Of a DNA stretch of 57,526 bases, positions 1,534-47,343 are shown in pieces. Position 1 is the stretch's first letter. Each line of letters begins with the position of its first letter. This DNA is from Patescibacteria group bacterium (GTDB taxonomy: Bacteria; Patescibacteriota; Doudnabacteria; UBA920; VMFF01). The stretch covers positions 1 through 57,526 of the forward strand of contig JBBTQQ010000002.1 of the NCBI GenBank assembly GCA_038065615.1, given 5' to 3'. The notes beneath the pieces were generated by a model. That model was not told the DNA's origin, did no database searches, and was given only the letters and a program-made list of their open reading frames with translations. The position numbers and the translations under genes were made by a program.

Positions 1534-1545
1534 TGTGTACAAACT

Positions 1546-1571
1546 AATCACCCGCTTTTAAAGCGGGTGAT
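1546..1571 (-). terminator. Hairpin terminator after the coiled-coil gene
   Basis: AATCACCCGC (1546-1555) pairs with GCGGGTGATT (1563-1572 region), immediately downstream of the stop at 1576. Confidence 0.5.
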
Positions 1572-1575
1572 TTAA

Positions 1576-2784: not shown

Positions 2785-2859
2785 AAATGTAAAAATATTA
2801 ATGTTGCTAATCTATATAAATAATACTCTCAGGAACAACGTTATGCAATCTTTAAACTC

Positions 2860-2933
2860 TGGAGCGGGAAACGGGAATCGAACCCGTGTCTCAACCTTGG
2901 GAAGGTCGCGTTCTACCACTGAACCATACCCGC
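2860..2933 (-). tRNA. tRNA-Gly (anticodon CCC)
   Basis: Reverse complement GCGGGTATGGTTCAGTGGTAGAACGCGACCTTCCCAAGGTTGAGACACGGGTTCGATTCCCGTTTCCCGCTCCA. Anticodon stem CGACC/GGTTG with loop TT-CCC-AA, T arm ACGGG-TTCGATT-CCCGT, encoded CCA. There is one U-U mismatch in the acceptor stem. Confidence 0.9.
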
Positions 2934-2951
2934 AAGATTACAAGGTATATT

Positions 2952-3809
2952 TTACCTAACAAGCCTTAAAACAGTATAGCTTGGTTTTTGCGCTATTAGC
3001 CATTGCTCAAAATCAGCCGTCTTTATAAATATCTGCTGAACCTTGTAACGCTTTGAGTCTTTTGGTCCTTTTGAATCACTGGCAAGCACCTTGAATATAT
3101 GAATACCATATCTAGAATATGCGGTATGTACTTTTGTGTCTTTCGCTGATTCAACCTCACTGAAATATTCTGAAATTAAATCTTTGTAACTAACATATCC
3201 CAAATCTCCACCAAGCTGAGCGCTTAGAGCATCTTCACTATATGCTATTGCTACGTCATCTAACCCACTTCCTGAATCCAGCTTGGACATGATTAAGTCA
3301 TATTTTGAAAAAGCATCTTTGTTTAACTTTCTGTTTGAAGCAAGCCAAACAGCAAGCTTTGTTTTAACAACATCTGGATACACAAACCAATCCTTAAACT
3401 GACTTTCCGAGAGTTTGTATTCTTTTGCTAACTCTGATTTTTGTGTTGTCTCTTTAAGCAATGCGTATGCTGAATCTACCTCTTTGCTTGAAACTGTAAT
3501 TCCTTTAGCTGAAAGAAGACTATCTGCAATCTTGTTTAAGACAAGCTGATTTATGAGTAGCCCTTTCTGTTCTGTGCTTAGCTTTGTTTTCTTTACCTCT
3601 TCAGAAACATCAAAACGCGTGAAATATTCTCCAAGTGTTACCACTTTAGAGTTAACAAACATTGCTGGTAGTGGAATATATCTAAAAAGTTTTTTTCCCA
3701 AAACTGAAGAAACTGGCAAGATATATGCTTGTAATATGAAAAGAAGAATTAAACCTAAAATTAAAAACCAGATTCTTTTTTTTGTCTTTGCTTTTATTCT
3801 CTTAGACAT
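2952..3809 (-). CDS. Membrane-anchored peptidyl-prolyl isomerase (parvulin/PpiC type, SurA/PrsA-like)
   Basis: N-terminal TM segment (RIWFLILGLILLFILQAYIL) and a C-terminal parvulin-like stretch GGDLGYVSYKDL...YGIHIFKV. Confidence 0.65.
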   Translation of the reverse strand: MSKRIKAKTKKRIWFLILGLILLFILQAYILPVSSVLGKKLFRYIPLPAMFVNSKVVTLGEYFTRFDVSEEVKKTKLSTEQKGLLINQLVLNKIADSLLSAKGITVSSKEVDSAYALLKETTQKSELAKEYKLSESQFKDWFVYPDVVKTKLAVWLASNRKLNKDAFSKYDLIMSKLDSGSGLDDVAIAYSEDALSAQLGGDLGYVSYKDLISEYFSEVESAKDTKVHTAYSRYGIHIFKVLASDSKGPKDSKRYKVQQIFIKTADFEQWLIAQKPSYTVLRLVR

Positions 3810-3811
3810 GT

Positions 3812-4207
3812 TTAAGGATTACCCCCTCTTAGGAAATATGTCACCCATTTATTAAAATTAGATTGATTTGCATTTTCTTGTTTTGTTGCTTCTTCTTGAT
3901 TAACAATTTCTGTTTGTGGACTTAGGGCTGAGAAAGAATACACAACTTCACCTTCTTTTTTAAGGTTTAACTGTTGTCTTGCTGCTTGTTCTTTGTAACT
4001 ATCTGTTTTCAAATATGCAATGAAGTTCTTAACCTCTTCGTTATTCTTTTGAATCTGGTCTGCTTGTTTAGTTAAAGCATCAATTTCTTTTTGAATGCTA
4101 TGTCTGTTTCTAAACTGACCAAAGCTTACAACTAAAAGAAAAAGCAGGAATATTGATCCGCCTATTACAAACGCCCTGCTCTGGATTATATCTTTAAACT
4201 TAGACAT
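3812..4207 (-). CDS. Septum formation initiator-like protein (FtsB/DivIC family)
   Basis: 131 aa with a single N-terminal TM followed by a coiled coil (IQKEIDALTKQADQIQKNNEEVKNFIAYLK). Typical architecture and cell-division context. Confidence 0.5.
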   Translation of the reverse strand: MSKFKDIIQSRAFVIGGSIFLLFLLVVSFGQFRNRHSIQKEIDALTKQADQIQKNNEEVKNFIAYLKTDSYKEQAARQQLNLKKEGEVVYSFSALSPQTEIVNQEEATKQENANQSNFNKWVTYFLRGGNP

Positions 4208-4210
4208 AGC

Positions 4211-4774
4211 TTAAATACTTCTTTTAGGCTTTATGAAAACCTTAGCAAACTCAGGTTGAGTGTATGCAGTCTTAGTGCTTGAATTTGCACCATACTCTAA
4301 ATGAACTTTCCAGATATAGTCTTTAACCTTTGAAGGATTAGGAATTGCTCTTAAAATTAAAGAATGATCTAACCCAACCACTTCTACTAAAACATCACCA
4401 TAATGAAAGAGGGTTGAGGAAACTCCTGTGGTTCTAAAACTAACATTTAAAATACGATCAAGGGGTGTTTCAATAACTGTTTTTTTAAACAACCCAGTAT
4501 GAACAATGTGTAAAAGTCTTTTTGAAGTAACTATATATACATTAACTGACCAAATGATAAAAGCATGCAACGCAAACATTGCAACAAGAACTGTCCATCC
4601 AATGAAAATCTGAGCGTGGGTGGTTGTTGAAAATATGAAGTCGTACTTTAAACCAAGGAACCAAGGAATGAAAATAAAAAGAAAAATCTGGAAAACTTTA
4701 GGCACAAGTGTAATCTCGTGCTTTCTGTAAACCGCTAAAAGTTGTTCATCACTATGAAGTTGGTGTGAAAACAT
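4211..4774 (-). CDS. Membrane protein with bacterial PH (YdbT-like, bPH_2) domain
   Basis: Two TM helices followed by KRLLHIVHTGLFKKTVIETPLDRILNVSF...GDVLVEVVG, which resembles the membrane-flanked PH fold family. Confidence 0.5.
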   Translation of the reverse strand: MFSHQLHSDEQLLAVYRKHEITLVPKVFQIFLFIFIPWFLGLKYDFIFSTTTHAQIFIGWTVLVAMFALHAFIIWSVNVYIVTSKRLLHIVHTGLFKKTVIETPLDRILNVSFRTTGVSSTLFHYGDVLVEVVGLDHSLILRAIPNPSKVKDYIWKVHLEYGANSSTKTAYTQPEFAKVFIKPKRSI

Positions 4775-4781
4775 TTTTGTT

Positions 4782-4886
4782 TCAATATACTGATGATTGA
4801 GAGAAAAGCATTAAAATCATGGACAAAACAACAAGGAATATGACTATGTTAACTACTATCTGAGCTTTTTTTCTGTTCCTAAACAT
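4782..4886 (-). CDS. Possible 34-aa single-TM micro-protein (below ORF-track cutoff)
   Basis: Hand translation gives MFRNRKKAQIVVNIVIFLVVLSMILMLFSQSSVY. It fills the gap between two genes, but I see no clear SD. Confidence 0.2.
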   Translation of the reverse strand: MFRNRKKAQIVVNIVIFLVVLSMILMLFSQSSVY

Positions 4887-4899
4887 ATATTTAAGTATA

Positions 4900-5460
4900 T
4901 CACAAAGCCTTCATTTTTTTAGCTGCAAGCAAAATACCTACCACAGTGCTAGTGAACGTAATCTTGCTACTTAGAATCATAGAAACAGCTTTTTTCAAAG
5001 GAACAAACTGCATTGAGCTGATTCCTTCTACAAACATATCAGAGCCAGAACCTTGTTTTTTTAAGTCCTGAGCTAAATATATATGGGTTTCTGAATTAGT
5101 ATGGCTTGGCATCGGGTTACAGATACATAACCTTGACCATTTTTTTGCAACCAAACCTGTTTCTTCAAAGAGTTCTTTTTTGGCTGTGAATAAAGGGGTA
5201 TGATTTTTTTCTACTCCGCCTCCTGGTAATTCCAAAAACTTTCTTTTGTAGACATACCTGTACTGTGAAATTAAACAAACTTCTTTTTTGGAATTAAGCG
5301 CAACAATTAAAACACCGTTTGTTAATTTAACGTGGGTGTACTCATGTTTTTTACCGTCTGGCAGATATATTTCATCAAGATAGTAAGTACGGAAAGGATG
5401 TTTATACAAAACTTTCCTAGAAACTCTTTGCCAAGCTTTGAATTTTGGTTTCTTTTTCAT
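4900..5460 (-). CDS. NUDIX hydrolase (ADP-ribose pyrophosphatase-like)
   Basis: Nudix box GGGVEKNHTPLFTAKKELFEETG. Confidence 0.85.
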   Translation of the reverse strand: MKKKPKFKAWQRVSRKVLYKHPFRTYYLDEIYLPDGKKHEYTHVKLTNGVLIVALNSKKEVCLISQYRYVYKRKFLELPGGGVEKNHTPLFTAKKELFEETGLVAKKWSRLCICNPMPSHTNSETHIYLAQDLKKQGSGSDMFVEGISSMQFVPLKKAVSMILSSKITFTSTVVGILLAAKKMKAL

Positions 5461-5462
5461 AG

Positions 5463-7247
5463 CTATTTCTTTAATACTGCAAGAAACGCTTCTTGAGGGA
5501 TTTCTACCCTGCCAACCATTTTCATTCGCTTTTTTCCTTTTTTTTGTTTGTTTAGAAGCTTCATCTTACGAGTAACGTCACCACCATAGAGATATCCAGT
5601 AACATCTTTACGGTATGCTTTGATTGTTTCGCGAGCAATGACCTTACCACCAATTGCTGCTTGTAATGCAATTTCAAACTGTTGTTTAGGAATTAAATCT
5701 TTCAACTTTGCTATTAAATCACGCCCATCTGATTCAGCTGTTGACCTATGAGCAATCATTGATAATGCTTCTACTGGCTCTCCGGAAACAAGAATATCGA
5801 TCTTAGAAAGCTCCCCTGTCCTGCTATCTATGAAATCATAATTTAAAGATGCATAACCAGATGAAACGCTTTTTAGCTTGTCATAGAAATCAACAATAAT
5901 ATTTGCAAGAGGCATTTCAAATTCCATTAAAACCCTGTCTTGTCCTAAATACTTAATGTCCTTGCTTATGGCTCTTCTTTGAATTGAAATATCAAGGATT
6001 GAACCAATGTATTCCGCAGGAGTTAATATTTCAACTTTCATCCAAGGTTCCTGAACACTTCCAATAATCGAAGGATCAGGCCATTCAGCAGGAGTATGAA
6101 TGACTTTTTCCTGTCCATTAGTTAATGTAATGCGATATGCAACGCTTGGCGCTGTTAAAACAAGGTCTAAACCATATTCCCTTGAAAGTCTTTCCTGAAC
6201 AATATCCATGTGCAAAAGACCCAAGAAACCTGTTCTAAAACCAAAACCAATTGAAGGAATGTTCTCTGGTTCAAAAGACAAAGCAGCGTCAGAGAGTTTT
6301 AATTTCTCCATAGCATCTCGCAACTCTGGATAGTCTTCTGCTGAAGTTGGAAAGATTGTTGCGTAAACCATTGGCTTAACCATCTTGTAACCAGGAAGCT
6401 GTTTTACATCTTTAAACTCTTTAAGAGTCACTGTATCTCCTACTCTAGCTTTTGAAACATCACGCAAACCTGTAACAATGTATCCTACTTCCCCAGTTTT
6501 AATTTCTGGTTGAGCTTCAAACTTAGGTCTGAAGAATCCTATCTCCAAAGCTTGTGCTTCAGTGTTTGTTCCAATCATCCTGATGGACTTGTTTTTTGTA
6601 ATACTCCCATCAAATATTCTAATGAAAGAAACAACACCTCTATGATTGTCATAGATTGAATCAAAAATCAAAGCTCTTAAAGGACTATCAGGATTTCCAG
6701 TTGGTGCCGGAACTCTTTCCACAACTGTTTTTAATATCTCATCAACTCCTTCACCGGTTTTTCCAGAAGCATACAAGAGTTCTTCTTCTTTAAATCCAAA
6801 TATCTTAATTATTTCCTCAGCAGTTTTCTTCCTATCAGAGTTTGGTAAATCAATCTTGTTAACCACTGGTATTATTTTCAAGTTATGCTCTAAAGCCAAA
6901 TGAACGTTTGCAAGTGTTTGCGCTTCAATCCCTTGCGTTGAATCAACAACTAAAATAGCCCCTTCGCAACAAGCGAGTGAACGAGAAACCTCATATGTAA
7001 AGTCAACGTGTCCTGGAGTATCAATTAAATTCAAAATATATTCTTTTCCATCCAGTTTGTAATCCATTCTGACAGGCTGCAACTTGATTGTAATCCCGCG
7101 TTCTCTTTCTAGATCCATCTGATCTAAAATCTGATCTTTCATTTCTCTCTTTGAAACAGTATTGGTAAATTCCAAAAGACGGTCTGCTAAAGTAGACTTT
7201 CCGTGGTCAATATGCGCAATAATGCAGAAATTACGTATGTTTTGCAT
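5463..7247 (-). CDS. lepA: Translation elongation factor 4 (LepA)
   Basis: N-terminal GTPase NFCIIAHIDHGKSTLADRLL, DTPGHVDF, NKIDL, and full-length LepA-like C-terminus. Confidence 0.95.
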   Translation of the reverse strand: MQNIRNFCIIAHIDHGKSTLADRLLEFTNTVSKREMKDQILDQMDLERERGITIKLQPVRMDYKLDGKEYILNLIDTPGHVDFTYEVSRSLACCEGAILVVDSTQGIEAQTLANVHLALEHNLKIIPVVNKIDLPNSDRKKTAEEIIKIFGFKEEELLYASGKTGEGVDEILKTVVERVPAPTGNPDSPLRALIFDSIYDNHRGVVSFIRIFDGSITKNKSIRMIGTNTEAQALEIGFFRPKFEAQPEIKTGEVGYIVTGLRDVSKARVGDTVTLKEFKDVKQLPGYKMVKPMVYATIFPTSAEDYPELRDAMEKLKLSDAALSFEPENIPSIGFGFRTGFLGLLHMDIVQERLSREYGLDLVLTAPSVAYRITLTNGQEKVIHTPAEWPDPSIIGSVQEPWMKVEILTPAEYIGSILDISIQRRAISKDIKYLGQDRVLMEFEMPLANIIVDFYDKLKSVSSGYASLNYDFIDSRTGELSKIDILVSGEPVEALSMIAHRSTAESDGRDLIAKLKDLIPKQQFEIALQAAIGGKVIARETIKAYRKDVTGYLYGGDVTRKMKLLNKQKKGKKRMKMVGRVEIPQEAFLAVLKK

Positions 7248-7256
7248 CCCTGAATT

Positions 7257-8816
7257 CTATCTTAAAAACCTTCTACGCACAACACCCAAAGCGCTCTTTG
7301 CTTCCTTAATATCCAAAGCAACAGCAGCTGCAAAATATATTGCTAAACCAGCAATTCCAGCAAGGAAACCTTGAGAGAATATTGTAATGACTGTGTTGTT
7401 ACCAAAATGAGAAGCAAAGACCTGTAAAGAAATATATGTCACAGCAGCAAGCATTGCACTCGCTAGAATAATCTTTGCGCTTGATTTAAAAATGTAATAG
7501 CTATCAAAATCTTTAACCTTGAAAGTTAATAAAAGATACAACAAGAAAGCATTAAGTAAACTGGAAATTGTAAAACCCCAGATAATACCATATGCGCCTA
7601 GAGTTCTTGAAAGAAAAATTGAGAAAAGCACATTCATCCCAAGACTAAACAAACCAACTAAAACCGGGGTTAATGTGTTCTGCCTTGCATAGAAAGCCCT
7701 TGAAAAAAGTGGTGAAAGACCTTGCGCAAAAACACTGACTGCAAATATTCCAAGCATGTTCGCTGTTAACTTGGTTGCTTGCCAATCAAAATTCCCTGAA
7801 CCTAAAACCACACGAACAATCTGAGCACGAAGCAATATTAAAAGAACTGAAATTGGAATTAAGAAAAACAATATATTAACAACTGTTTTACTTAAAGTCT
7901 CTCCGAACTTTTGATGATCCTCTCTTGAGAAATGTTCTGAAAGATCAGGAAAAGCCGCTGTTGCAAAAGAAATACCAAACATCCCAATCGCAACCGCCTG
8001 TATATTATTAGCAAGATTAAAACCAGAAACAGTTCCTGACATCAAAGTTGTTCCAATAATAGACGCGACTAGCAAACTAATCTGCGAGTTATCAATCCCT
8101 AAAATCCTAGGAACAAAAAGCTTCGCGATCTTTCTAACTCCAGGGTTTTTAAAATCCAAATTTGGTTTTAATTTAAACCCTGAAGCAAGAGCACCAAACA
8201 TCTGAATACATAGATGCAACAAGGCTCCAAGGATCACACCATAAGCTAAACCCTTAATTCCATATATTGGATACAGGTATACAACACCAAAAATTATCCC
8301 AAAATTGTATATTATAGGTGCTAAAGAAACTAAAACAAAACGTCTAAGAGCATTTAAAACACTCCCAAAAACACTTGAGATTGTAAAGATAATCGGAGAA
8401 AGCAAGAATATCTTTGTTAGCATTACAGTGTCATCAAACTGCTTGCCACTAAACCCAGGCGCCATTAAATGAGTTATCTGTGGCACAAAGACATACAACA
8501 CCAAACAAACCACAGACATACCAAAAAAAGTAACACTCAAAATTGTATTCGCAATACTGTTTGCTTCTTTTTTGTCTTTAATGAAATAATCTGTAAAAAC
8601 AGGGATGAAAGCAACAGAAAGAGTTCCTAAGATTAGAAGATTAAAAACCAGGTCCGGGAGTCTAAAAGCAACGTAATACGTATCTAGTGTTTCTCCAATG
8701 CTAAACTTTCCTGCAAGCAAGTGGTCTCTGTATAGACCTACTAATCTTGAAAGCAAAGTAAAAAATGCAAGAATAGCTGCTGATTTTAAGATGGTTGTTT
8801 TTTGATTAACGTTCAT
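7257..8816 (-). CDS. murJ: Lipid II flippase MurJ (MviN)
   Basis: 519-aa polytopic membrane protein. N-terminal SRLVGLYRDHLLAGKFSIGETLDTYYVAFRLPD is typical of MurJ. Cell-wall gene context. Confidence 0.85.
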   Translation of the reverse strand: MNVNQKTTILKSAAILAFFTLLSRLVGLYRDHLLAGKFSIGETLDTYYVAFRLPDLVFNLLILGTLSVAFIPVFTDYFIKDKKEANSIANTILSVTFFGMSVVCLVLYVFVPQITHLMAPGFSGKQFDDTVMLTKIFLLSPIIFTISSVFGSVLNALRRFVLVSLAPIIYNFGIIFGVVYLYPIYGIKGLAYGVILGALLHLCIQMFGALASGFKLKPNLDFKNPGVRKIAKLFVPRILGIDNSQISLLVASIIGTTLMSGTVSGFNLANNIQAVAIGMFGISFATAAFPDLSEHFSREDHQKFGETLSKTVVNILFFLIPISVLLILLRAQIVRVVLGSGNFDWQATKLTANMLGIFAVSVFAQGLSPLFSRAFYARQNTLTPVLVGLFSLGMNVLFSIFLSRTLGAYGIIWGFTISSLLNAFLLYLLLTFKVKDFDSYYIFKSSAKIILASAMLAAVTYISLQVFASHFGNNTVITIFSQGFLAGIAGLAIYFAAAVALDIKEAKSALGVVRRRFLR

Positions 8817-10990
8817 TATCTTCCTTCTAATACTAATCCTAAGAATGTGTCCTCTGAAAGACTTGAGTTGTAATTAATCTTTCCTAGGGAGTTTTTCAAA
8901 TTACCAGTGTACCACAAAACCTTAGCATTGGTTTTAAGGGAATAATCAATCTTTAAAGGATTTGCTCCTGGCTGTTTTTGAAGCAAAAGACTATATTTTC
9001 TTGAATCATCTAGATTAAAAGGTAATCTGTATTTTAAGGTCACAACAGCTTCTTCTCCTGGTAAAACCTCAATCCAGTTTGCAAAATATGTTTTCCCTGC
9101 TTCAATCCCCTCTACTGTTCCTGATGTTTGATCTACTACTTTAGAAACTGAATCATATTTTAACAAATCAGAATCTTTTTTAAACTGATTCTTCAAAGCA
9201 TCAATTAAGTTTGCAGTGTATCCACTGCCATCTGACTTGTAATATGGTTTTTTAACAAAACCTTGTGCAGAAACAAATTTGCTCCCTTTTGGAACCAAGA
9301 ATCTGACATAATCAATGTTCTTTGCTTGCTCATACAAATTTAACTGATGTTTTCTTGTGTAAGTTATTGTATTAACAATACTGCCATCTTCTTGCACTTC
9401 AGAATTTAAAACCGCGCTTTGTTGAATACTTAAATCGGTTTTCCTTCCACCAAGATTTGTATTGTAAATTGCTAAATAGTCTCTGTCTGTATCTAAAATT
9501 CTTCCAGCCCAGGAATAGCTTTCAAAAATCTCCTGAACATTTTTGTTTCGATCATAGAACATCAAATTTTTCTTTGACAAAGAACTAAACAAAATACCCA
9601 GTAATTCTGATTTTTGCTCTGGTGTTGCTAAAGATATTTTTTGTAGTAGTAATGGCGCAAAATCAGAAAGTATTTGTTTTGGTTTGTTCTCTTTCTTGTT
9701 ATAACCAATTGAAGTATTTAACTGAACCTGCTCTCTAAAGTTATTAGCATTTAAACTAACATTGTACTTAGGAAGATCAATTGGTCCTAACACAGAAAGC
9801 AAATCAACAAACATATCTGGGGTCATCGCAACAACAGCATCAGGAGTTTGTTTACCTGCCTTTTCATAAAAAGAAATTGCTTTTAGCGCTGACTCCTTAA
9901 AATCAACAAACCAGTTTGAGTCTCTTAAGCCCCAGCTATCTGTTAAATCATGAAAAGGTCCAGGTGGCGCAATCTTTTCTAAAATCTGTCCGTCAAGATC
10001 ATAGACGCTAGATATTTTCTGTGATTCAATCTTCCCATTGTTTAACTTAAAGAAACCATAAGTACCAATGAACCCACCGGTTGCTCTTAACTCATTGTTG
10101 TTTTCAAACAAAACCAACAAAGTCTTAGAACCAGGTCCCAAAAACTGCTGAAAGAGATTAAGGATTGAGGAAATCTGACTTAAAGCAACACTTCCCTGCT
10201 CCAAATTATTTTTGTAATTAACAAACTGATCTCTTAAATCCTCAGGCAAATACTTTGAATCAACCTTGCTTAAGTTTTCTGTTGCTTTCTTAATACCATC
10301 TTCAGCGTCATTCAAATATTTTTTTGTGGCATTAAGTGTTTGATACAAACCATCAGGACTACTAAAGCCATTCTCAGAAACCTGAATTTGCGATGTCATC
10401 GCATAAAAGTTGTTCAAAGCAATACCGCTTGCTGAAAGTTCTGCCCCTGCTTCAAGCAGATTCTGAGCTGCTTGTCCTTCAGGCAAAATCTTGATCGCGC
10501 TTGAAACCAAACCTCCCAAACTACTAATATCTTTTCTTGCTTGCTCAAAATTGTTCTGCGCAAACTCAAGTTGTTTTTGTACTCCAACAAAATCTTTTTC
10601 AGAAGCTAACACCTGCGCTTCTTTTAACTGACTAAGAGCTTGTTTGGCTGTACCAATGACTTGAGAGCGGGTTTGAATTCCCGACGCAACTATTGAAGCG
10701 CTTTTTAAAGAAACAAAACAAAGCAAGGCAAGAACACCAAAAACAAGTGTTTCTTTTTGTATAACAGAGAGCTTTGGATATTTTGCAACAACTTGCTTGT
10801 TTAACAAATTAATATCAGCAGGAAATATTTCAGACTCTAACAAATCCTCTTTGCTTGGAAGTAATATCTTAGGACCTGAAACAATATTTTTAGGTGCAAC
10901 AAAAGACTCTCTCTGAACCACAGGTTTCTCAACCTTCTTCTTCAGAAACTCATCATACCTATTCTTTTTCGGTCTTTTAATTTCTTGCAT
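8816..10990 (-). CDS. Large N-terminally anchored extracytoplasmic protein, DUF4012-like
   Basis: 724 aa with a TM segment near residue 85. The NNELRATGGFIGTYG segment is what I recall as characteristic of DUF4012 (from memory, unverified). Its stop shares position 8816 with the murJ start. Confidence 0.45.
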   Translation of the reverse strand: MQEIKRPKKNRYDEFLKKKVEKPVVQRESFVAPKNIVSGPKILLPSKEDLLESEIFPADINLLNKQVVAKYPKLSVIQKETLVFGVLALLCFVSLKSASIVASGIQTRSQVIGTAKQALSQLKEAQVLASEKDFVGVQKQLEFAQNNFEQARKDISSLGGLVSSAIKILPEGQAAQNLLEAGAELSASGIALNNFYAMTSQIQVSENGFSSPDGLYQTLNATKKYLNDAEDGIKKATENLSKVDSKYLPEDLRDQFVNYKNNLEQGSVALSQISSILNLFQQFLGPGSKTLLVLFENNNELRATGGFIGTYGFFKLNNGKIESQKISSVYDLDGQILEKIAPPGPFHDLTDSWGLRDSNWFVDFKESALKAISFYEKAGKQTPDAVVAMTPDMFVDLLSVLGPIDLPKYNVSLNANNFREQVQLNTSIGYNKKENKPKQILSDFAPLLLQKISLATPEQKSELLGILFSSLSKKNLMFYDRNKNVQEIFESYSWAGRILDTDRDYLAIYNTNLGGRKTDLSIQQSAVLNSEVQEDGSIVNTITYTRKHQLNLYEQAKNIDYVRFLVPKGSKFVSAQGFVKKPYYKSDGSGYTANLIDALKNQFKKDSDLLKYDSVSKVVDQTSGTVEGIEAGKTYFANWIEVLPGEEAVVTLKYRLPFNLDDSRKYSLLLQKQPGANPLKIDYSLKTNAKVLWYTGNLKNSLGKINYNSSLSEDTFLGLVLEGR

Positions 10991-10993
10991 AAC

Positions 10994-12112
10994 TTAAACG
11001 TCCAAATGCTTAGAAATATTCAACAAAACACCAACAGCAGAAAGCAAAACAACCAAGGCTGAGGAGCCAAAAGAAACAAAAGGCAACGGAATGCCCGTTA
11101 AAGGCAAAACTCCGATTATCGCTCCTATATTAATCAAAGCTTGAAAAGAAATCCAAGAGATAATACCGACAGCAAGCATTTTTCCAAATGTATCAGGAGC
11201 GTGATTTGCTATTCTCAACCCCCTAAAAGCAAGGATTAAGAATAGACCGATAATCAATCCAGAACGCAGAAATCCAAGTTCTTCCACTGTTACAGCAAAG
11301 ATTGAATCTCCCATAACCTCAGGAAGATAGTTATACTTTTGTCTTGATTCTGTATATCCTCTACCAAAAAATCCTCCTGACCCAATCGCAACCATTGCTT
11401 GGTTAATCTGATACCCAATCCCTTGTGGGTCTATTCCTGGATTTAAAAACGTAGTTAAACGTTGTAAACGATATGGCTCTAATTTAATCAAAATACCCAT
11501 AGCCACAAGTCCAGCAACAAAAATCCAGAGCAAATGTTTAATCTTTGAACCTCCAACAAAAAGCATTATAAAAGCTGTTACTGTAATAACTAGCATTGTT
11601 CCAATATCAGGTTGTAAGATAATTAAACCCGCGATTGCTCCTATGATTACAAGAGTTGGAATAATGCCATAGTAAAAGTCATCAATCTCTTCCCTCCTTT
11701 TATCAATCCAAGAAGCAATATAGAAAATGAGGGCGAGCTTCGCTATCTCAGCTGGTTGAAAAAACAAAGGTCCAAAATCCAACCAGCGTCTTGCATTACC
11801 AACCTTAAAACCCACACCAGGGACTAAAACTAAAGCAAGCAAAACAATACTAAGAAATATTAAAAGGGGTGCCAGCTTCTGCCATCTGTGATAGTCAATC
11901 TTACTAAAAATATACATACAAAGTAACCCAAGCAAAACTCCTTGAGTTAGCTGATTAAAAAAATAATGGGTGTTATTACCAAACTTTGAAAAAGAAAGAA
12001 CAGTTGACGCAGAATACAAAATAACTAAACCAACGCCAAGCAATATCAAAACAACTGCTGTCAGCTTGTAATCAACTGTTGCTTGTTTAATTCTATTCCT
12101 AACTATTGCCAT
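10994..12112 (-). CDS. ftsW: SEDS-family peptidoglycan polymerase FtsW/RodA
   Basis: About 10 TM helices with family-typical segments QPAEIAKL, LQPDIGT and SRQKYNYLPE. Start moved to MAIVRNR (12112), because the track's 12202 start runs 100 nt into murD. Confidence 0.85.
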   Translation of the reverse strand: MAIVRNRIKQATVDYKLTAVVLILLGVGLVILYSASTVLSFSKFGNNTHYFFNQLTQGVLLGLLCMYIFSKIDYHRWQKLAPLLIFLSIVLLALVLVPGVGFKVGNARRWLDFGPLFFQPAEIAKLALIFYIASWIDKRREEIDDFYYGIIPTLVIIGAIAGLIILQPDIGTMLVITVTAFIMLFVGGSKIKHLLWIFVAGLVAMGILIKLEPYRLQRLTTFLNPGIDPQGIGYQINQAMVAIGSGGFFGRGYTESRQKYNYLPEVMGDSIFAVTVEELGFLRSGLIIGLFLILAFRGLRIANHAPDTFGKMLAVGIISWISFQALINIGAIIGVLPLTGIPLPFVSFGSSALVVLLSAVGVLLNISKHLDV

Positions 12113-13508
12113 ATTTTCTTGCAGCTTCTTTAAATTGATTCCCTCGATCCTTGTAATCTTTAAACATCCCAAAACTTGAAGTCGCGGGCGCAAGCAAAAC
12201 AATATCCCCTTCTAAAGCAATTTCCTTAATCTGCTCAAAAGCTTCAGGCATACTTTTTGCACCAGTATATATTTTTCCAACGAAAAAATTCTTCAAAAGT
12301 GCTTGCTCTAGTATTTCAGATATCTGCCCTATTAAAACAACCCCCTTTATCTGTTTTAACTTAGTTACCTCATATGCAAAAGATTCATAATCAGCACCCT
12401 TGTTAACACCTCCCATTATGACTATTTCTGGTTTACTAAACGCCTTCATAGCTGCAAGCGCGCTTTCAGGAGTTGTTCCAAACGAGTCATCAAAAAACTG
12501 AACACCATTAAATGTTCCAACCTCTTCTAACCTGTGCTCTAAACCTTTGTACTCCCTTATGGTTTGCAATATTACCTGATCAGTAATACCAGGTTCTTCT
12601 TTAGAAACAATCTTTGAAACCATAATTGCAGCACAAACATTCTGAAGATTATGAAAACCAGGCAAAGAAAACTCTTTCGCATCAGCATAAAACTGAGTTT
12701 CTGAATCATTAACAAGATATATATGCTTTTCTAACTCTTCAGCAAATATTCCATCTTTGATCTTTAAAAACTCTTCTGCTTTGTAAATCTTGAAAGGATC
12801 TGCTTTACCAACACTTTCTTCTTGCAATGTCTGAACAAAATATTTCTTCGCGCTTCCCAACTTTCCAATGATCATCGCCTGCTCATAGTCGCTGTTAACA
12901 ATCGCAAAATCATTTTTGGTTTGAAATTTAGTAATGGGACTCTTTGCGTCATAGTATTCTGAAATATCTTTGTGATAGTCAAGGTGCTCTGGAACAACCA
13001 TTAAAACAACCGCAATGTGTGGACTAACATCAACATCAGCTAGTTGAAAACTTGAAAGCTCTAAAACAATGTATGCGTCGTCTTCAGAAAGCAAACTTAA
13101 AACCTCTGAACCAAAGTTACCACCCAAGAAAACTTTTAACCCAGAGTTCTTAAGTATTTCATAAACCAACTTCGCGGTTGTACCCTTTCCTTTTGAACCA
13201 GTAATACCAATTATCTTTGATTTAGTGTTTTGTAGGAAAAACTTCAATTGTGATGTTAAAACAATCCCTTTTTCTCGTGCTTGTAAAAGACTTGGCTCTG
13301 AAAGCTTAATTCCTGGTGATCTAAAAAGAATTTCCCGATCAAAAATCTCTGAGAAATCTTTGGCGTTTGTTTTTACTCTAACCTCTGAATCTTGATCATA
13401 CACTTCAAAAGACAAGCCGTTCTTAGTTAAAAAAGCAGCAACTGCTTGCCCTTCTATACCAAAACCCAAGATACCAATCTTTTTTTCTTGTAAGTCTGTA
13501 ATATTCAT
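12099..13508 (-). CDS. murD: UDP-N-acetylmuramoylalanine--D-glutamate ligase
   Basis: Rossmann-like N-terminus KIGILGFGIEG and Mur ligase P-loop GITGSKGKGTT. Sits between mraY and ftsW, as in dcw clusters. Confidence 0.9.
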   Translation of the reverse strand: MNITDLQEKKIGILGFGIEGQAVAAFLTKNGLSFEVYDQDSEVRVKTNAKDFSEIFDREILFRSPGIKLSEPSLLQAREKGIVLTSQLKFFLQNTKSKIIGITGSKGKGTTAKLVYEILKNSGLKVFLGGNFGSEVLSLLSEDDAYIVLELSSFQLADVDVSPHIAVVLMVVPEHLDYHKDISEYYDAKSPITKFQTKNDFAIVNSDYEQAMIIGKLGSAKKYFVQTLQEESVGKADPFKIYKAEEFLKIKDGIFAEELEKHIYLVNDSETQFYADAKEFSLPGFHNLQNVCAAIMVSKIVSKEEPGITDQVILQTIREYKGLEHRLEEVGTFNGVQFFDDSFGTTPESALAAMKAFSKPEIVIMGGVNKGADYESFAYEVTKLKQIKGVVLIGQISEILEQALLKNFFVGKIYTGAKSMPEAFEQIKEIALEGDIVLLAPATSSFGMFKDYKDRGNQFKEAARKYGNS

Positions 13509-15073
13509 TAGCTATGTTTTCTTAAAACTCTGCCATTTAATTTTTGAGTTAATTCTCCATTAACAAGCGCTTTTCTGCCATTTACTAAAACTAAATCAAT
13601 ACCTGTTGGCTGCTGGAAAGGATTTGAAAAACTTGCCTTAGAATTAACGGATTCATCAAAAACGACAATATCCGCGTAGTTATCAACTGCCAACACCCCC
13701 CTGTGCTTTAACCCTATTTTACTTGCTGGAATTGATGTCATCTTTTGAATCGCCTGTTCAATACTACAAAGCTTTTCTTTCAACACAAGGCTTAAAAACT
13801 TTGGCATTGAACCAAAACATCTTGGATGCACTAAAGAATCTCTTCCTTTAATTGGAAAACCAGCGCCGTCTGTTGCAACAATTCCTAAAGCATGGGAAAG
13901 CAACTCATTTACCTGTTTTTGTTCCAAGTTTCTTTCAAAGACTAAAATCTCACTACCACCGCGCTCAACAATATTTAACAATGCTTCTTCAACATCAACT
14001 CCTTGTCGTTCAGCAATCTCAGCCAATGTTTTTCCATTAACATTTAAAGACATCGTTGTGCTTGCAATGAAGATTGAAGCATAATCAATATTTTTTCCTT
14101 GCAAATATGCTTTAACCTTGTTTCTTTGAATTGGATCCTTAAGATGACGCATCATTGCTTCTCTGCCGCCTTCATAACTCCACTTTGGTAAATATGTATA
14201 AAGAACCTGCCAAACAAAATCATATGGATACACATCAAAATGAACATTGCTTCCTTTTTGATACGCTGTTTCAATGCTATGTAAAGCATCATCAAACAAA
14301 TGCCAATTTTCTTTGTTCCTGACTTTCAAATGCGATATCTTTAAATTAACACCGGTCTTTGAAGCTAAATCAAGCGCTTCATTAATGCTTTCCAAAAGTT
14401 CAGCGCCTTCAGAACGTAAATGCACTGCGAGCATTGCATGATGTTTTTTCAATGTTTCTGAAAGAGTTAAAAGCTCATCTGATGCAATCACAGCTTCATG
14501 AGCATACGACAAACCAGAGGACAAACCAAAAGCTCCTGCTTTCAAACTATGTTCCAAAGCTTTAATTAAAATGACCATTTCCTCTGGTTGAAGAGGACGA
14601 ATCTCATCTTTAACCAATCCTCGACGTAGCGTTGAATATCCAACAAGGCTCCCAATGTTTACCCCAAAGTTTCTTTTGCTTAACTCATTTAAATATTCAT
14701 CAAATGTTAACCAATTAAAATTAACACCTTCTAAATTGTGCCATTTCTGAATTGAAAGAAGAGCGTCTCTTGAAAGCAAAGGCGCTAAAGATGCCCCGCA
14801 ATTACCAATGATTGCTGTTGTAATTCCTTGAGCAACCAAACTATCTAAACTAGGGCTGTCAAAAACAGTCCAATAGACGTCAGAGTGGTTTTGAATATCA
14901 ATGAACCCTGGAGCAATGTATTTCCCGGTTGCGTCATATATTTCCTCTGCATTAGCTTTTTGTAAATTACCGATCTGAACAATTCTGTCCTGTTCAATTG
15001 CAATATCAGCCTTAAACGCAGGCTTCCCTGTTCCGTCAATTATTGTCCCGTTTTTTATGATCTTTGAATACAT
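13508..15073 (-). CDS. Amidohydrolase-superfamily enzyme, N-acyl-D-amino-acid deacylase (D-aminoacylase)-like
   Basis: N-terminal IIDGTGKPAFKADIAIEQDRIVQIG and metal motif GFIDIQNHSD. Length and layout fit the D-aminoacylase family. Its stop shares position 13508 with the murD start. Confidence 0.7.
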   Translation of the reverse strand: MYSKIIKNGTIIDGTGKPAFKADIAIEQDRIVQIGNLQKANAEEIYDATGKYIAPGFIDIQNHSDVYWTVFDSPSLDSLVAQGITTAIIGNCGASLAPLLSRDALLSIQKWHNLEGVNFNWLTFDEYLNELSKRNFGVNIGSLVGYSTLRRGLVKDEIRPLQPEEMVILIKALEHSLKAGAFGLSSGLSYAHEAVIASDELLTLSETLKKHHAMLAVHLRSEGAELLESINEALDLASKTGVNLKISHLKVRNKENWHLFDDALHSIETAYQKGSNVHFDVYPYDFVWQVLYTYLPKWSYEGGREAMMRHLKDPIQRNKVKAYLQGKNIDYASIFIASTTMSLNVNGKTLAEIAERQGVDVEEALLNIVERGGSEILVFERNLEQKQVNELLSHALGIVATDGAGFPIKGRDSLVHPRCFGSMPKFLSLVLKEKLCSIEQAIQKMTSIPASKIGLKHRGVLAVDNYADIVVFDESVNSKASFSNPFQQPTGIDLVLVNGRKALVNGELTQKLNGRVLRKHS

Positions 15074-15095
15074 TTTGTTTTTCCCTCTTTTTTGA

Positions 15096-16142
15096 TTAAG
15101 ACTTTATGCCAACGAAATGAATAATTACACCGAGCATTGCAAAAACCATTGAAATGATCCAAAGCCGCATGGTTACTTTTGCTTCAGGCCAACCAGAAGC
15201 TTCTAGATGATGATGGAGTGGTGATGAAAGCAACAGCTTTCTTCCAAAAACTTTACGCCAAAATATCTGACCAAACAAAGAAAGTGCTTCAATTACAAAA
15301 ACAATTCCAATAATCGGTAAAATTAGTTCACCGTGCAGAAGGAAGGCAATGACAGCTAAAACAGTTCCAAGACCCATTGAACCCGTGTCTCCCATGAAAA
15401 ACATTGCCGGAAAAATATTAAACCAAAGAAAAGCGAGTAAAGCACCTGAAATAACTCCAATGAAAGAAGCTAACTCATAACGTCCTTCTAGATATGCGAT
15501 TAATCCATATGCTAAAAAAGACGTCAACAAAGTTCCACCTGCTAAACCGTCTAAACCATCAGTTTGATTTACAGAAAAACTAGTGCCAACCGCAGCAAGA
15601 ATGAAGAATGGAATGTATAGCCAACCAATATAGAGGTTTCCAAAAAAAGGAACTGAGAGATAGTCAAAGCCGAGTTTGAAATAGAACCAATAAGCACCAA
15701 CTGCTGCTACTAGAGCATAGAAAATTAACTTGTATCTAAAACGAATGCCTCTGTTCTTGTAACCTCTTCCTCTCCAATCTAAATAGTCATCAAACAAACC
15801 AATCAAAGAAGCGCCAAACAAAGCTCCAACAGGAAGTAATGTTTCTTTACGTGTTAAAAAGTTTAATATATGAAAATATTCAATATGTAAAACTCTATCT
15901 AAAAACCAAAACAAAGAGATTAAAAAACATGTTGTTCCCCAAACAAGGATTCCTGCCATAGTTGGTGTTCCCTGCTTCCCAGCATGCATATGACTATACA
16001 CAGGAGTTGAACCATCATTACGGATATTTTTCCCAATTTTGAACTTTAAAAGAAGGTTAGTTAGCAAAGGAGTAGCTGCTAAAGCAACGAAAAAAGAAAT
16101 CCCTGCCAAAATTAAAACTTTTAGGAGATGATAACTGATCAT
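15096..16142 (-). CDS. mraY: Phospho-N-acetylmuramoyl-pentapeptide transferase
   Basis: Polytopic membrane protein with MraY-typical segments GTPTMAG, NQTDGLDGLAGG, MGDTGSMGLG and SSPLHHHLE. Confidence 0.95.
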   Translation of the reverse strand: MISYHLLKVLILAGISFFVALAATPLLTNLLLKFKIGKNIRNDGSTPVYSHMHAGKQGTPTMAGILVWGTTCFLISLFWFLDRVLHIEYFHILNFLTRKETLLPVGALFGASLIGLFDDYLDWRGRGYKNRGIRFRYKLIFYALVAAVGAYWFYFKLGFDYLSVPFFGNLYIGWLYIPFFILAAVGTSFSVNQTDGLDGLAGGTLLTSFLAYGLIAYLEGRYELASFIGVISGALLAFLWFNIFPAMFFMGDTGSMGLGTVLAVIAFLLHGELILPIIGIVFVIEALSLFGQIFWRKVFGRKLLLSSPLHHHLEASGWPEAKVTMRLWIISMVFAMLGVIIHFVGIKS

Positions 16143-16201
16143 AATATGTTTTTACGCTTTTTATTATACCACAAAATGAGTAATATTCTAAATCTAAGCT
16201 C

Positions 16202-16230
16202 TTGCTGATAAAATGTGTTTTCTGTAGAAT
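16202..16230 (+). promoter_or_regulatory. Candidate sigma70-like promoter of the GC-2 cassette
   Basis: TTGCTG (16202-16207), 17-nt spacer, TAGAAT (16225-16230), 26 nt before the ATG at 16257. Confidence 0.4.
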
Positions 16231-16256
16231 ACGAGCACACCTGAATCGGAGGAACC

Positions 16257-16511
16257 ATGGCTGGAGGAAGCATGTCTGTGGAAACGGTGGAAACGAAGCC
16301 AGCGCACATCGAGACTGTGATCGGCGTGGTCGCACTCGTGATTGCAGCGCTCGTTGCAGCTTCGATCCTCGCGATCAACATCAACGCTCATGACGCAATC
16401 AAGGAGGTCGGCTTCTGGACCGGGATGGCCTATCGGGTCATTACCTTCACGTCGTGGCTTCTGGCTGCGGCACTCGCCGGGATCGGCTCACAGCTCGTTC
16501 GTGACGCCTGA
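16257..16511 (+). CDS. 84-aa two-TM small membrane protein, compositionally foreign (GC-2)
   Basis: GGAGG (16248-16252) lies 4 nt before the ATG. Two hydrophobic spans: IETVIGVVALVIAALVAASILAINI and VITFTSWLLAAALAGIGSQLV. Lines 16261-16440 count 55/60/58% G+C. It is the only plus-strand gene in the 547-17616 minus-strand run. No family recognised. Confidence 0.55.
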   Translation: MAGGSMSVETVETKPAHIETVIGVVALVIAALVAASILAININAHDAIKEVGFWTGMAYRVITFTSWLLAAALAGIGSQLVRDA

Positions 16512-16543
16512 GATCAGCAACAGCCCTCCGCAAGAAAGCAAAA

Positions 16544-16604
16544 CCCCGATGACAAAGATGATCATCGGGGTAAGCGTCAATCAAAGCAGTTGCTGCTTTT
16601 TTTT
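16544..16604 (+). terminator. Two hairpins after the GC-2 ORF; the second has a T-run
   Basis: CCCCGATGA/TCATCGGGG (16544-16570), then AGCAG-TTG-CTGCT followed by seven T (16585-16604). The second hairpin abuts the convergent dac gene stop. Confidence 0.55.
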
Positions 16605-17616
16605 AATTCCAGCTGAAATTATCAAACACGTATTTAATCACTTCGAGTGTACTGTCGTTTCTGTCTGGTGTTCCTAAAACAATCGCAATAACTTTATTAC
16701 CGTTATCATTCACTGCTTCAACAATCATGTTGCCCTGAGCTTTTGCTGTATACCCTGTTTTTATGGATTTAATATTTTTGTATTCGAAAACTAAATCATT
16801 ACTGTTTTTAATCTTGTATATTTTACCTAACAACGATTCGAAAGTATAACTTGCTTGCTGACTCCAGATCTGATCATACGGTAATATATCAATCCCATAA
16901 TTAACTAACTTCCTTAAATCCTTTGCTGTTGAATAGTTTGCTTCTGAATCAAAACCAACTGGATTACTGAAATGCGTGTTTTCCATCCCGAGCTCTTTTG
17001 CTTTTGCATTCATCTTTGAAACAAAATCAGCTTTGTTTGGAAAATGGTTGGCAAGAGTTAATGCAGCATCATTTGCGGAACCAAGAAGCATTGCTTTAAG
17101 TAAGTCTTCAGGATAAACTTTGTCTCCTGGAACTAAACCAAGATACGGACTAACTTTCAAAGCGTCCTCTTGAGTTATGGTTATGCTCTCTTTAAAGTTT
17201 GGATCTTCAGAAGCAACGATTGCTGTCATGAATTTTGTTAAAGAAGCAATTGCTACTTGAGCATCTATGTTTTTCTGATACAAAATTGTTTGAACAGCAG
17301 GATCATACACCAAGAAAGCTTTTGCTTTAACATCAGGGACTACCGAGTAATTAGTTTGTTTAACAGCCTGTTCATTATTAACATCGCCTCCCCTTGGCGG
17401 AGTAGCAATAGGTCCTTGAAGTGGGGTAGAAAAATTAAAATCCTGACTTGTATCAGGAGATGTTACGTTAATTGTAGCACCTAAAACCTTTCCAGTCTTT
17501 GCTTGTGGTATTTGCCAATTGAAAGCAAACAACAGCAATGCAACTGCAGGGATTAGGATTGATAGATTTTGCGCTATTTTCCTTGGCACTTTTGTTTTTG
17601 TTTTAAATCCTTGCAA
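16603..17616 (-). CDS. D-alanyl-D-alanine carboxypeptidase (peptidase S11, PBP5-like)
   Basis: SxxK (ASLTKFM), SxN (GSANDAA) and KTG (KTGYT) motifs in the canonical order, plus an N-terminal anchor. Confidence 0.85.
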   Translation of the reverse strand: MQGFKTKTKVPRKIAQNLSILIPAVALLLFAFNWQIPQAKTGKVLGATINVTSPDTSQDFNFSTPLQGPIATPPRGGDVNNEQAVKQTNYSVVPDVKAKAFLVYDPAVQTILYQKNIDAQVAIASLTKFMTAIVASEDPNFKESITITQEDALKVSPYLGLVPGDKVYPEDLLKAMLLGSANDAALTLANHFPNKADFVSKMNAKAKELGMENTHFSNPVGFDSEANYSTAKDLRKLVNYGIDILPYDQIWSQQASYTFESLLGKIYKIKNSNDLVFEYKNIKSIKTGYTAKAQGNMIVEAVNDNGNKVIAIVLGTPDRNDSTLEVIKYVFDNFSWN

Positions 17617-46443: not shown

Positions 46444-46797
46444 CTAAACCGCAAAGAATAACGCAATAGCAGCCAAACCAAGCCCAATATCCCTGAAAGT
46501 TATATCCAACACCCCTAAACCAGGAGCCAAAGCAATGACAAACAACAAAACAGCGGCTACCAGAGAAAAGAACTTAACCTTAACATTACCTAAAAATAAA
46601 AGACCAAGAGCAATATCAAGCAAAGCATGGGCAAAGAGCGCGTTCTCCCTTGTAAAACCAAAATTAGAAACCCACATAGGAACAAAACCAACCCAATCAT
46701 TTGGATTAATCAAAGACCTAACCCCAGCATAGATAAAGACAAAGGCTAGAGATATTCTTAACAACAAGACGGTTTTTTGAACCTGTTCTGCTCTCAT
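46444..46797 (-). CDS. Small DoxX-like membrane protein
   Basis: 117 aa, 4 hydrophobic spans. The N-terminal LLLRISLAFVFIYAGVRSL resembles the DoxX family. Confidence 0.45.
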   Translation of the reverse strand: MRAEQVQKTVLLLRISLAFVFIYAGVRSLINPNDWVGFVPMWVSNFGFTRENALFAHALLDIALGLLFLGNVKVKFFSLVAAVLLFVIALAPGLGVLDITFRDIGLGLAAIALFFAV

Positions 46798-46815
46798 CCC
46801 CTAAATTATACACCA

Positions 46816-46844: not shown

Positions 46845-46918
46845 GAACTTACCTGGAAAGCCCAGGAGACTTCCACCCAGGCGGTGGGGCAACATCCTTT
46901 TGAAAGGGAGAGTCTACT

Positions 46919-47341: not shown

Positions 47342-47343
47342 GA

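Follow-up and report, generated by a model that had tools for sequence, protein, structure and literature searches.

A GC-rich orphan gene for a predicted membrane hairpin, inserted between dac and mraY in Candidatus Doudnabacteria

Introduction

Phage morons are defined by having their own promoter and terminator, a G+C content unlike that of their neighbors, and the look of an obvious addition relative to related genomes (PMC3594210). Here, we describe a bacterial gene that can be compared to morons, as well as to type I toxins, class II holins, integron cassettes, and ORFans. A survey of prokaryotic ORFans found that their G+C is ~4% lower on average than that of genes with homologs, and their G+C at third codon positions (GC3) is 12.5% lower, while in GC3-poor genomes ORFans show the same or higher GC3. 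Our gene is an 84-amino-acid (aa) open reading frame (ORF) at 16257–16511 on the plus strand of a 57,526-nt stretch of DNA (the window) from a Patescibacteria group bacterium belonging to Candidatus Doudnabacteria (positions 1–57,526 of contig JBBTQQ010000002.1, assembly GCA_038065615.1). It lies in a GC-rich island, GC-2, between a DD-carboxypeptidase gene (dac) and mraY. We will call it the small gene.

Deviant G+C is routinely taken as a mark of recent horizontal transfer, and the small gene breaks that reading: GC3 near 0.7 appears to have been kept, in a genome with GC3 near 0.3, across lineages whose synonymous sites are nearly saturated. We lean slightly towards a joint explanation, which is that this is a real orphan gene for a membrane hairpin, brought in by an autonomous antisense insertion, kept vertically, fast-recombining, and with its GC3 at equilibrium.

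Results

A ~405-bp insertion between dac and mraY

The inserted segment (~16196–16602, plus strand; ~405 bp, with its left boundary placed to a precision of ~5 bp) fills the space between the dac stop codon (16603–16605, minus strand) and the ancestral −35 box of mraY. Its flanks are co-oriented on the minus strand: dac (16603–17616; Peptidase_S11, Pfam PF00768 on the orthologs) lies upstream, and mraY (15096–16142; 348 aa, PF00953 on an ortholog) lies downstream. The small gene is antisense to both, and its surroundings comprise dac, mraY, murD, ftsW, murJ, and a thioredoxin gene. Within 547–17616 it is the single credible plus-strand gene; this had been claimed in an original prediction made from the DNA letters, and the other ORFs in that interval gave no second candidate.

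That prediction had also proposed looking for an empty mraY/dac junction in relatives, and we found one in L012, L013, and L014, whose MraY is at 81%, 77%, and 67% identity, respectively. In these genomes, the two genes are on the same strand and are separated by a gap of 25–50 bp, which contains the TG-extended −10 box (TG-TATAAT) of the mraY promoter; we found no terminator between dac and mraY in these empty-site relatives. Because the junction is empty in the outgroups and the mraY promoter was already there, these comparisons show the small-gene unit to be a single insertion of ~405 bp between the dac stop codon and a pre-existing mraY promoter. By the same comparison, the insertion breaks a formerly tight dac-mraY junction and adds a putative dac terminator that is absent from the empty site. 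Among 80 species representatives with a relative of MraY, the small gene is confined to L009, L010, and L011 (MraY 95–99% identity).

The insertion has its own expression signals

The small gene has a predicted promoter (16202–16230, plus strand) with a −35 box of TTGCTG (16202–16207), a 17-nt spacer, and a −10 box of TAGAAT (16225–16230). The 5′ untranslated region (UTR; 16231–16256) contains a conserved GCACACCTGAA and the Shine-Dalgarno (SD) sequence GGAGGA (16248–16253), which is 3–4 nt before the ATG at 16257. Two hairpins follow the ORF. A terminator scan identified the first, with arms ACCCCGATGA/TCATCGGGGT (10 bp, 16543–16571), as an intrinsic terminator on the minus strand (16533–16571; hairpin 16571–16543, then TTTTGCTTTC); because its T-tract is on the minus strand, this is a predicted terminator for dac, not for the small gene. 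The second hairpin (16583–16599) is followed by T8 and is the putative intrinsic terminator of the small gene (16583–16607, plus strand); its T-run overlaps the dac stop codon. The hexamers, the GGAGGA, the 84-aa ORF, and the two hairpins were all at the coordinates in the original prediction, which also gave the translation exactly.

The promoter of mraY (16163–16192, minus strand) consists of TTTAGA, 18 nt, and a TG-extended TATAAT; it is ancestral and lies outside the insertion. The small gene diverges from it, with the two promoters back to back, as had been proposed. TGGTATAAT is invariant in the relatives that carry the island and is also present in the empty-site relatives L012 and L013, and TGTTATAAT is found in L014.

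We consider the promoter signals of the small gene credible because they are conserved in relatives, and not because of how well the hexamers match. In nine relatives, the −35 core CTTGC, TGTAGAAT, the leader GCACACCTGAA, CGGAGGA, and the dac-facing hairpin are conserved, while the spacers vary. The stem of the dac-facing hairpin shows a compensatory change in L093 (GATGA/TCATC to GGTGA/TCACC), and the terminator of the small gene keeps its hairpin and T-run in relatives while its sequence varies. In a quick scan of ORF-derived starts for 46 host genes in the window, a 4-mer SD was present in 9 and a 5-mer SD in 2. Since host genes mostly lack an SD, the strong SD is another way in which the small gene differs from its host.

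Comparative evidence thus shows the insertion to be an autonomous unit, with its own putative promoter, a strong SD, a terminator for the small gene, and another that points the opposite way, and the earlier description of a stand-alone antisense unit holds up. The dac-facing terminator would end dac transcription before it enters the small gene in antisense, and the divergent promoters, together with the new dac terminator, would uncouple mraY from dac read-through.

Three observations concern the signals themselves. First, this strain has a 15-nt tandem duplication, GGAGGAACCATGGCT / GGAGGAAGCATGTCT (16248–16277, plus strand), which gives a second SD and an ATG at Met6; it is found in no relative, and the relatives have Ile6 (they read MAGGSISVE). 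A second tandem repeat in the 5′ end of the ORF (16248–16295), the 9-nt GTGGAAACG, gives VETVET. These duplications suggest that 16248–16295 is prone to slippage. Second, a 19-nt exact inverted copy (13429–13447) of the small gene's terminator hairpin (16584–16602) lies in the 5′ end of murD, where it encodes QAVAAF, and it also appeared as a second piece in the read layout; the copy is probably due to chance (blastn E = 5e-4). Third, several host genes, including mraY and a DoxX-like gene, have a TG-extended −10 box just 7–20 nt before the start codon, which suggests that this organism has short-leader or leaderless mRNAs.

The small gene encodes a predicted helical hairpin

The island also holds overlapping ORFs of 45–111 aa in other frames, so ORF length alone is no evidence of coding. 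Among the orthologs, the variable alignment columns fall at codon positions 1/2/3 in numbers of 24/25/48, and the ratio of nonsynonymous to synonymous divergence (dN/dS) is 0.16–0.5, versus 0.01–0.04 for mraY and 0.04–0.12 for dac. Protein lengths range from 83 to 87 aa, and the differences imply indels of whole codons. Together, these patterns show 16257–16511 to be a real protein-coding gene, for a predicted helical-hairpin membrane protein of 83–87 aa. We rejected an overlapping antisense protein: the antisense ORFs are open in some relatives and broken in this genome.

A structure prediction had been suggested as a check. AlphaFold2, run on the family alignment, gave a helical hairpin with helices at residues 16–51 and 53–83 and a mean predicted local distance difference test (pLDDT) score of 74.5. 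The original prediction saw two clear hydrophobic helices; by Kyte-Doolittle hydropathy, this is right for helix 1, which is strongly hydrophobic (peak 2.94), and an overstatement for helix 2, which is moderate (peak 1.43). Across 12 variants, the invariant residues are E19, A26, A44, I48, G52, W54, T55, Y59, L69, and L73 (with E19, G52, W54, T55, and Y59 as the core), and the turn G-x-W-T-x-x-(A/S)-Y is conserved. The C-terminal tail is very short (3–6 residues) and not highly charged. The hairpin would be embedded in the cytoplasmic membrane, and its G-x-W-T-x-x-A-Y turn would lie at the surface of that membrane.

An orphan family in a single slot

We found few homologs of the 84-aa protein: 8 among 5.8 billion clustered proteins. 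An exhaustive HMMER profile search of 1.84 billion representatives gave three clusters. All copies with recoverable context are in the slot between mraY and dac, in a narrow subclade of Candidatus Doudnabacteria (Patescibacteria). These searches show the family to be a genus-level orphan that occupies one slot only.

No family had been recognised in the original prediction, and searches of Pfam (E up to 1), PHROGs, PADLOC, NCBIfam, and PDB sequences (including a PDB profile search) likewise gave no significant match, so that, as far as sequence comparison can tell, this is a new orphan family. The matches to PHROGs were weak and inconsistent (best E = 0.006–0.008, from 2–3 of 12 members), and we disregarded them. 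We also rejected an origin from a phage or a plasmid: 50,697 phage records searched with tblastn gave no match, neither did a plasmid collection, and the viral contigs of IMG/VR contain no relative of this family or of the 120-aa GC-3 family (described below). Finally, the conserved hairpin does not recur as an element elsewhere. When metagenome contigs were scanned by 21-mer, only this locus was hit (5 loci), besides 12 chance matches that were coding and lay in unrelated, mostly GC-richer contigs; viral contigs gave none.

Vertical inheritance, rapid evolution, and exchange of alleles

With the exception of L009, synonymous divergence (dS) of the small gene is 0.22–0.89, which tracks or is slightly below that of mraY (0.25–1.06) and dac. 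Its nonsynonymous divergence (dN) is ~6–10 times that of mraY and ~2 times that of dac. Because the dS of the small gene broadly tracks that of mraY and dac, these rates show it to have been inherited together with its flanks, with a predicted protein that evolves ~2–10 times faster than theirs.

The exception is informative. The MraY of L009 (Gr01-1014_77) is ~99% identical to that of the window (98.6% in one comparison). In an island of 600 bp, its slot (3362–3902, minus strand of that locus) contains a tandem pair of hairpin-protein genes, which encode 87 and 85 aa. The two paralogs each have their own GGAGGA, are 28% identical to each other, and are 34% and 51% identical to the window's protein. 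Between L004 and L009, the flanks are 89–98% identical, and the two sequences cease to resemble each other only from the −10 box to the dac-facing hairpin. In addition, L099 carries a mosaic allele, whose N-terminal half is like the window type and whose C-terminal half is like the extra L009 paralog. Given the tandem version in L009, the mosaic in L099, and a replacement within flanks that are otherwise ~92–98% identical, the coding part is shown to behave as an exchangeable, recombining allele between conserved ends.

GC-richness appears to be maintained

The island has ~56–59% G+C: the profile rises from ~0.33 to 0.52–0.60 within 16200–16600 and then drops back. The ORF itself has 59.2% G+C and a GC3 of 0.69, while mraY and dac have 36–37% G+C and GC3 of 0.27–0.28. 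Across the window's ORFs of at least 100 aa, GC3 averages 0.318 (standard deviation 0.082); the genes for ribosomal proteins L7/L12 and L10 have 0.27 and 0.30.

This composition is not confined to one strain. The small gene is in conserved synteny in at least six diverged lineages, with flank dS of 0.25–1.06, and in eight lineages its GC3 is 0.65–0.78, with mraY and dac there at 0.25–0.35. Under a two-state decay model (host equilibrium of 0.30; 0.4–0.5 GC-AT substitutions per site per lineage), a gene that started at GC3 = 1.0 would now be at ~0.5–0.6. We also examined the direction of third-position changes, which we polarized with outgroups (triplets) by parsimony and counted per site-branch; a singleton-based version of this test was biased by rooting, and the polarized triplets were used in its place. 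For the small gene, 24/296 GC-to-AT and 12/70 AT-to-GC changes imply an equilibrium GC3 of 0.68 (actual 0.65–0.78). The corresponding counts are 14/114 and 25/414 for dac, which imply 0.33 (actual 0.25–0.29), and 21/282 and 51/826 for mraY, which imply 0.45 (actual 0.27–0.35). AT-to-GC changes made up 12 of the 36 events in the island, versus 14% under the host process (binomial P = 0.003). This is good but not conclusive evidence for a local force that favors G and C at the small gene; we do not grade it higher because few changes were counted and because parsimony has a bias, which the values for mraY illustrate.

The GC-richness of the small gene thus does not appear to be leftover foreign composition, and its third positions appear to be near an equilibrium of their own, at GC3 ~0.7. 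Three parts of the original prediction need to be divided on this point. The gene was said to be acquired: the empty outgroup junction bears out an insertion, and the idea of recent foreign DNA fails, as the gene is syntenic and GC-rich in all of the diverged lineages. The GC-rich third positions are indeed unlike those of host genes (0.69 versus a mean of 0.318), and as a mark of recent transfer they mislead. And a conserved AT-rich homolog in relatives had been proposed as a sign of an ordinary lineage gene: the relatives do have conserved homologs, which are GC-rich too.

Two forces might maintain the GC-richness: GC-biased gene conversion, at a locus that is prone to recombination, or selection that acts on the mRNA or the DNA. 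Because recombination is seen at this locus, biased gene conversion is a candidate. Lassalle et al. (2015) reportedly described GC-biased gene conversion at recombining loci in bacteria. The small-gene locus is similar in having raised local GC3 together with recombination (allele replacement and a mosaic allele); it is different in that the size of the effect, and its confinement to ~400 bp, exceed the modest genome-wide differences in GC3 reported for bacteria. If the pattern holds genome-wide, it would provide a clean natural case in which to tell biased gene conversion apart from selection in bacteria, and would point to a pool of small, rapidly evolving proteins in the Patescibacteria, which are little understood.

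Other GC-rich islands in the window

The island at 16196–16602 is not unique: the window has further GC-rich islands at ~68–460, 46800–47370, and ~54640–54930. The second of these contains GC-3, a 120-aa ORF (46919–47281, plus strand, in the stretch 46798–47487) with a GC3 of 0.70, its own TTGCAG-17-TACGAT, and two downstream hairpins. It is antisense between the gene for HU (47488–47772, minus strand) and a DoxX-like gene (46444–46797, minus strand). Its homologs are only 51–55% identical, are all in the same slot, and have GC3 of 0.70–0.74. AlphaFold2 modeled the GC-3 protein as a soluble alpha+beta fold (pLDDT 72.7), with weak NTF2/VirB8-like matches (E ~0.05).

Slightly more tentatively than the conflict role that we propose for the small gene (see Discussion), these islands could belong to a class of small autonomous orphan genes in these Doudnabacteria, lying antisense between co-oriented host genes, with coding parts that are swapped, duplicated, and recombined within conserved ends, and with a local force that holds GC3 at ~0.7 in a genome with GC3 of ~0.3. 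Recombination hot spots with GC-biased gene conversion could supply this force, as could selection on the mRNA. This would be a so-far undescribed kind of hypervariable cassette that maintains its own composition, plausibly for phage or host conflict in an episymbiont. GC-2 and GC-3 would be the clear cases, and the islands at 68–460 and 54640–54930 may be others.

The islands share no significant sequence with each other. By eye, the 3′ ends of GC-2 and GC-3 both looked like AAAGCAAAA-stem-CAAAG; blastn-short gave only 9–10-mers (E of 0.2 or worse), and we rejected a shared origin. The island at 68–460 has ~56–58% G+C, lies directly upstream, as read on the minus strand, of a tRNA-Thr(CGT) cut by the edge of the window, and ends in a 13-bp GC hairpin (78–113); its fold z-scores are −2.1 and −2.6. 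Neither of its long ORFs is on record as a protein and it has no match in Rfam; it may represent an RNA that is not yet recognised, or a cassette that has degraded. The island at 54640–54930 has ~53% G+C and lies between the end of a gene for an 856-aa repeat-rich surface-type protein (54915–57485, minus strand) and a tRNA-Thr(TGT) (54521–54596, minus strand); it has no Rfam match (best E = 0.65) and no recognised protein. Both of these islands are just upstream of a tRNA-Thr.

Elsewhere in the window, the cell-wall cluster at 7257–15073 includes two unusual members, an amidohydrolase gene (13508–15073) between mraY and murD, and a gene for a DUF4012 protein (8816–10990) between ftsW and murJ; both are conserved in relatives. 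A 51-aa ORF (54342–54497, minus strand), which reads as ribosomal protein L33-like, has a GC3 of 0.57, well above other host genes, in a small sample.

Discussion

What the small gene might do

Lineage restriction, a high rate of protein evolution, duplication, mosaicism, and the replacement of alleles typically characterize genes for conflict or interaction. The rapid, recombining, lineage-restricted evolution of the small gene, and its moron-like architecture, point tentatively to a part in conflict or interaction at the envelope, such as exclusion or immunity, and away from housekeeping; we see this as possible, with the odds somewhat against it. Such a role could be exclusion of, or immunity against, phages or toxins, or it could involve cell-cell contact, which would be relevant for an episymbiont.

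Several points weigh against our joint explanation or against a function built on it. The functional assignment relies on the evolutionary pattern and the architecture, with no homology or structural match: Foldseek gave generic helical hairpins, all with E > 1, so we rejected any function based on fold. Helix 2 is only moderately hydrophobic. The promoter hexamers match the consensus at 8 of 12 positions and were not called by the consensus scan, which found 1 promoter-like site in the region versus 2.2 expected by chance (fewer than in shuffles). A search among RNA runs turned up none that contains the stretch, and no contigs covered the island in three metatranscriptomes, from a study with the organism at ~2–3x. 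The test of substitution direction used parsimony and 36 events, and the same method overestimates the equilibrium for mraY (0.45, versus an actual 0.28). And no mechanism of insertion is apparent, as we found no conserved target-site duplication or terminal inverted repeat and no second copy of the ends elsewhere. We did consider a 17-nt direct repeat (16191/16579) and a 12-nt inverted repeat (16198/16513) as the ends of a mobile element; they are at chance level and not conserved in relatives.

Alternative explanations

The small gene might instead be a modulator of envelope synthesis, with its hairpin binding MraY, the DD-carboxypeptidase, or another enzyme of the lipid-II pathway and tuning peptidoglycan synthesis, so that its position in the cell-wall cluster would reflect its function. 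The gene is fixed between dac and mraY in every carrier genome, it has a back-to-back promoter region in common with mraY, and it is under purifying selection, all of which would fit. Yet the nearest relatives with the same cluster lack it, and it evolves ~6–10 times faster than MraY (in L009, MraY is ~99% identical and the small protein 52%), which is a poor fit to a partner of a near-invariant enzyme. Furthermore, a second island of the same architecture, GC-3, lies between the unrelated genes for HU and DoxX, so the position of the small gene may reflect where insertions are tolerated. We consider a modulator unlikely.

Slightly less likely again is a small membrane protein that is toxic in the manner of a type I toxin or a holin, and that is silenced either through sequestration of its SD or through read-through from dac in antisense. 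The product is small and hydrophobic, its gene has a strong SD and converges with dac, and the two SD-ATG units in this strain give starts at Met1 and Met6. Also, the 3′ UTR contains CCCTCCG (16524–16530, plus strand), which is complementary to the SD (CGGAGG) and is kept in most relatives (as CCCTCCG, GCCTCCG, or CCCTCCC; it is weaker in L004, L009, and L093). This motif may sequester the SD, or it may be incidental. The minimum free energy fold does pair the SD, with an internal UCCUCG instead of the 3′-UTR motif, and the fold z-score of −0.9 is not significant. On the other side, a protein of 83–87 aa with two helices is unlike typical type I toxins; we found no minus-strand promoter inside the island that could drive a separate antisense RNA, and read-through from dac meets a putative terminator that would block the proposed one; and PADLOC and PHROGs gave nothing significant. 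The original prediction listed a holin among the possibilities, and this is not supported, given the very short C-terminal tail, the lack of a lysis partner nearby, and a dual start that is confined to this strain.

That the small gene is a recently transferred foreign gene, still with the composition of its donor, is quite improbable; on the comparative evidence it is largely refuted. Its G+C, GC3, and SD usage differ sharply from those of host genes, and it is absent from outgroups. But the gene is syntenic in at least six lineages with GC3 of 0.65–0.78 throughout, where neutral decay even from GC3 = 1.0 would have left ~0.5–0.6, and the substitutions imply an equilibrium near 0.68. Neither the 1.84e9 representatives nor the phage, plasmid, and viral collections yielded a donor or a mobile relative.

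It is very improbable that there is no protein gene here, and that the island is a structured RNA or a GC-rich spacer with an ORF that is open by chance. In AT-rich genomes, a GC-rich island is often an RNA gene; this island has several overlapping open frames, and the comparable island at 68–460 has no called protein. Against this, there is the excess of variation at third positions with dN/dS below 0.5, and this genome does not keep the antisense ORFs open. We tested for a structured RNA and rejected it: Rfam 15 gave nothing at the gathering threshold for any of the four islands, with chance-level matches at E up to 10, and ARAGORN found nothing in the island at 16196–16602. The fold z-scores of GC-2 (−0.9 and −1.7) reveal no exceptional structure that would explain its GC-richness.

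An assembly chimera or bin contamination that joined GC-rich DNA to an AT-rich contig would account for the abrupt switch in composition at both ends of the island, and it has a negligible probability, being already refuted: three independent assemblies (one from Hainich groundwater) contain exactly this protein on identical, contiguous DNA that is flanked by mraY and dac in the same way, contigs from four runs in two studies cross 15900–16900 without joints (depth 8–85), so the proposed check of the boundaries for chimeric support found none, and metagenome-assembled genomes of other species have orthologous islands.

For annotation, these results show the ORF at 16257–16511 and the 120-aa ORF at 46919–47281 to be real genes, as opposed to artefacts of GC-rich sequence.

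Comparison with known systems

WXG100/EsxA proteins (soluble, ~100 aa, helix-turn-helix, with W-x-G at the turn; PF06013) came up as a candidate and were rejected. The small protein has W54-T-G56 at its turn, and G56 is Ala in three variants; its helices are hydrophobic, there is no Pfam match at E up to 1, and the Foldseek matches to EsxA have E of 1.5 or worse.

Like an integron cassette, the unit is a compact single ORF of foreign-looking composition that is followed by an imperfect hairpin. Unlike a cassette, the small gene has its own conserved putative promoter, the downstream hairpins are two opposed predicted terminators, and there is one fixed slot instead of an array. Inspection by eye, with no dedicated search, revealed no attC-like site, and no integrase-like ORF was noticed in the window, with no screen made.

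The small gene falls in the size class of type I toxins and class II holins and, like them, has hydrophobic helices, convergent transcription, and a strong SD that may be sequestered. Type I toxins differ in having a single transmembrane segment and typically fewer than about 60 aa. Class II holins are closer, with two transmembrane segments within ~65–95 aa, though helix 2 is only moderately hydrophobic here. They differ in having a charged hydrophilic C-terminal domain, an adjacent endolysin, and a dual-start motif; the small gene has housekeeping neighbors, and its Met6 and second SD are not conserved.

ORFan small membrane proteins are also short and fast-evolving, with no detectable homologs outside a narrow clade. 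Where the small gene departs from prokaryotic ORFans in general is its GC3 of 0.69, against a host mean near 0.3, which appears to be maintained.

Phage morons offer another likeness. The small gene differs from them in its setting, which is a core cell-wall cluster of the chromosome and neither a phage nor a prophage; it has no phage or viral relative, and it appears to be stably inherited at the level of the genus, with its composition at equilibrium and no trace of recent transfer. In other respects it resembles a moron: at the level of sequence, it has its own promoter and terminator around a single ORF; its G+C of 59% and GC3 of 0.69 contrast with 36–37% and 0.27–0.28 in mraY and dac; like that of HK97 gene 15, a membrane superinfection-exclusion protein, its product is predicted to be a small membrane protein; and it sits between two adjacent genes and is absent from the same junction in L012, L013, and L014.

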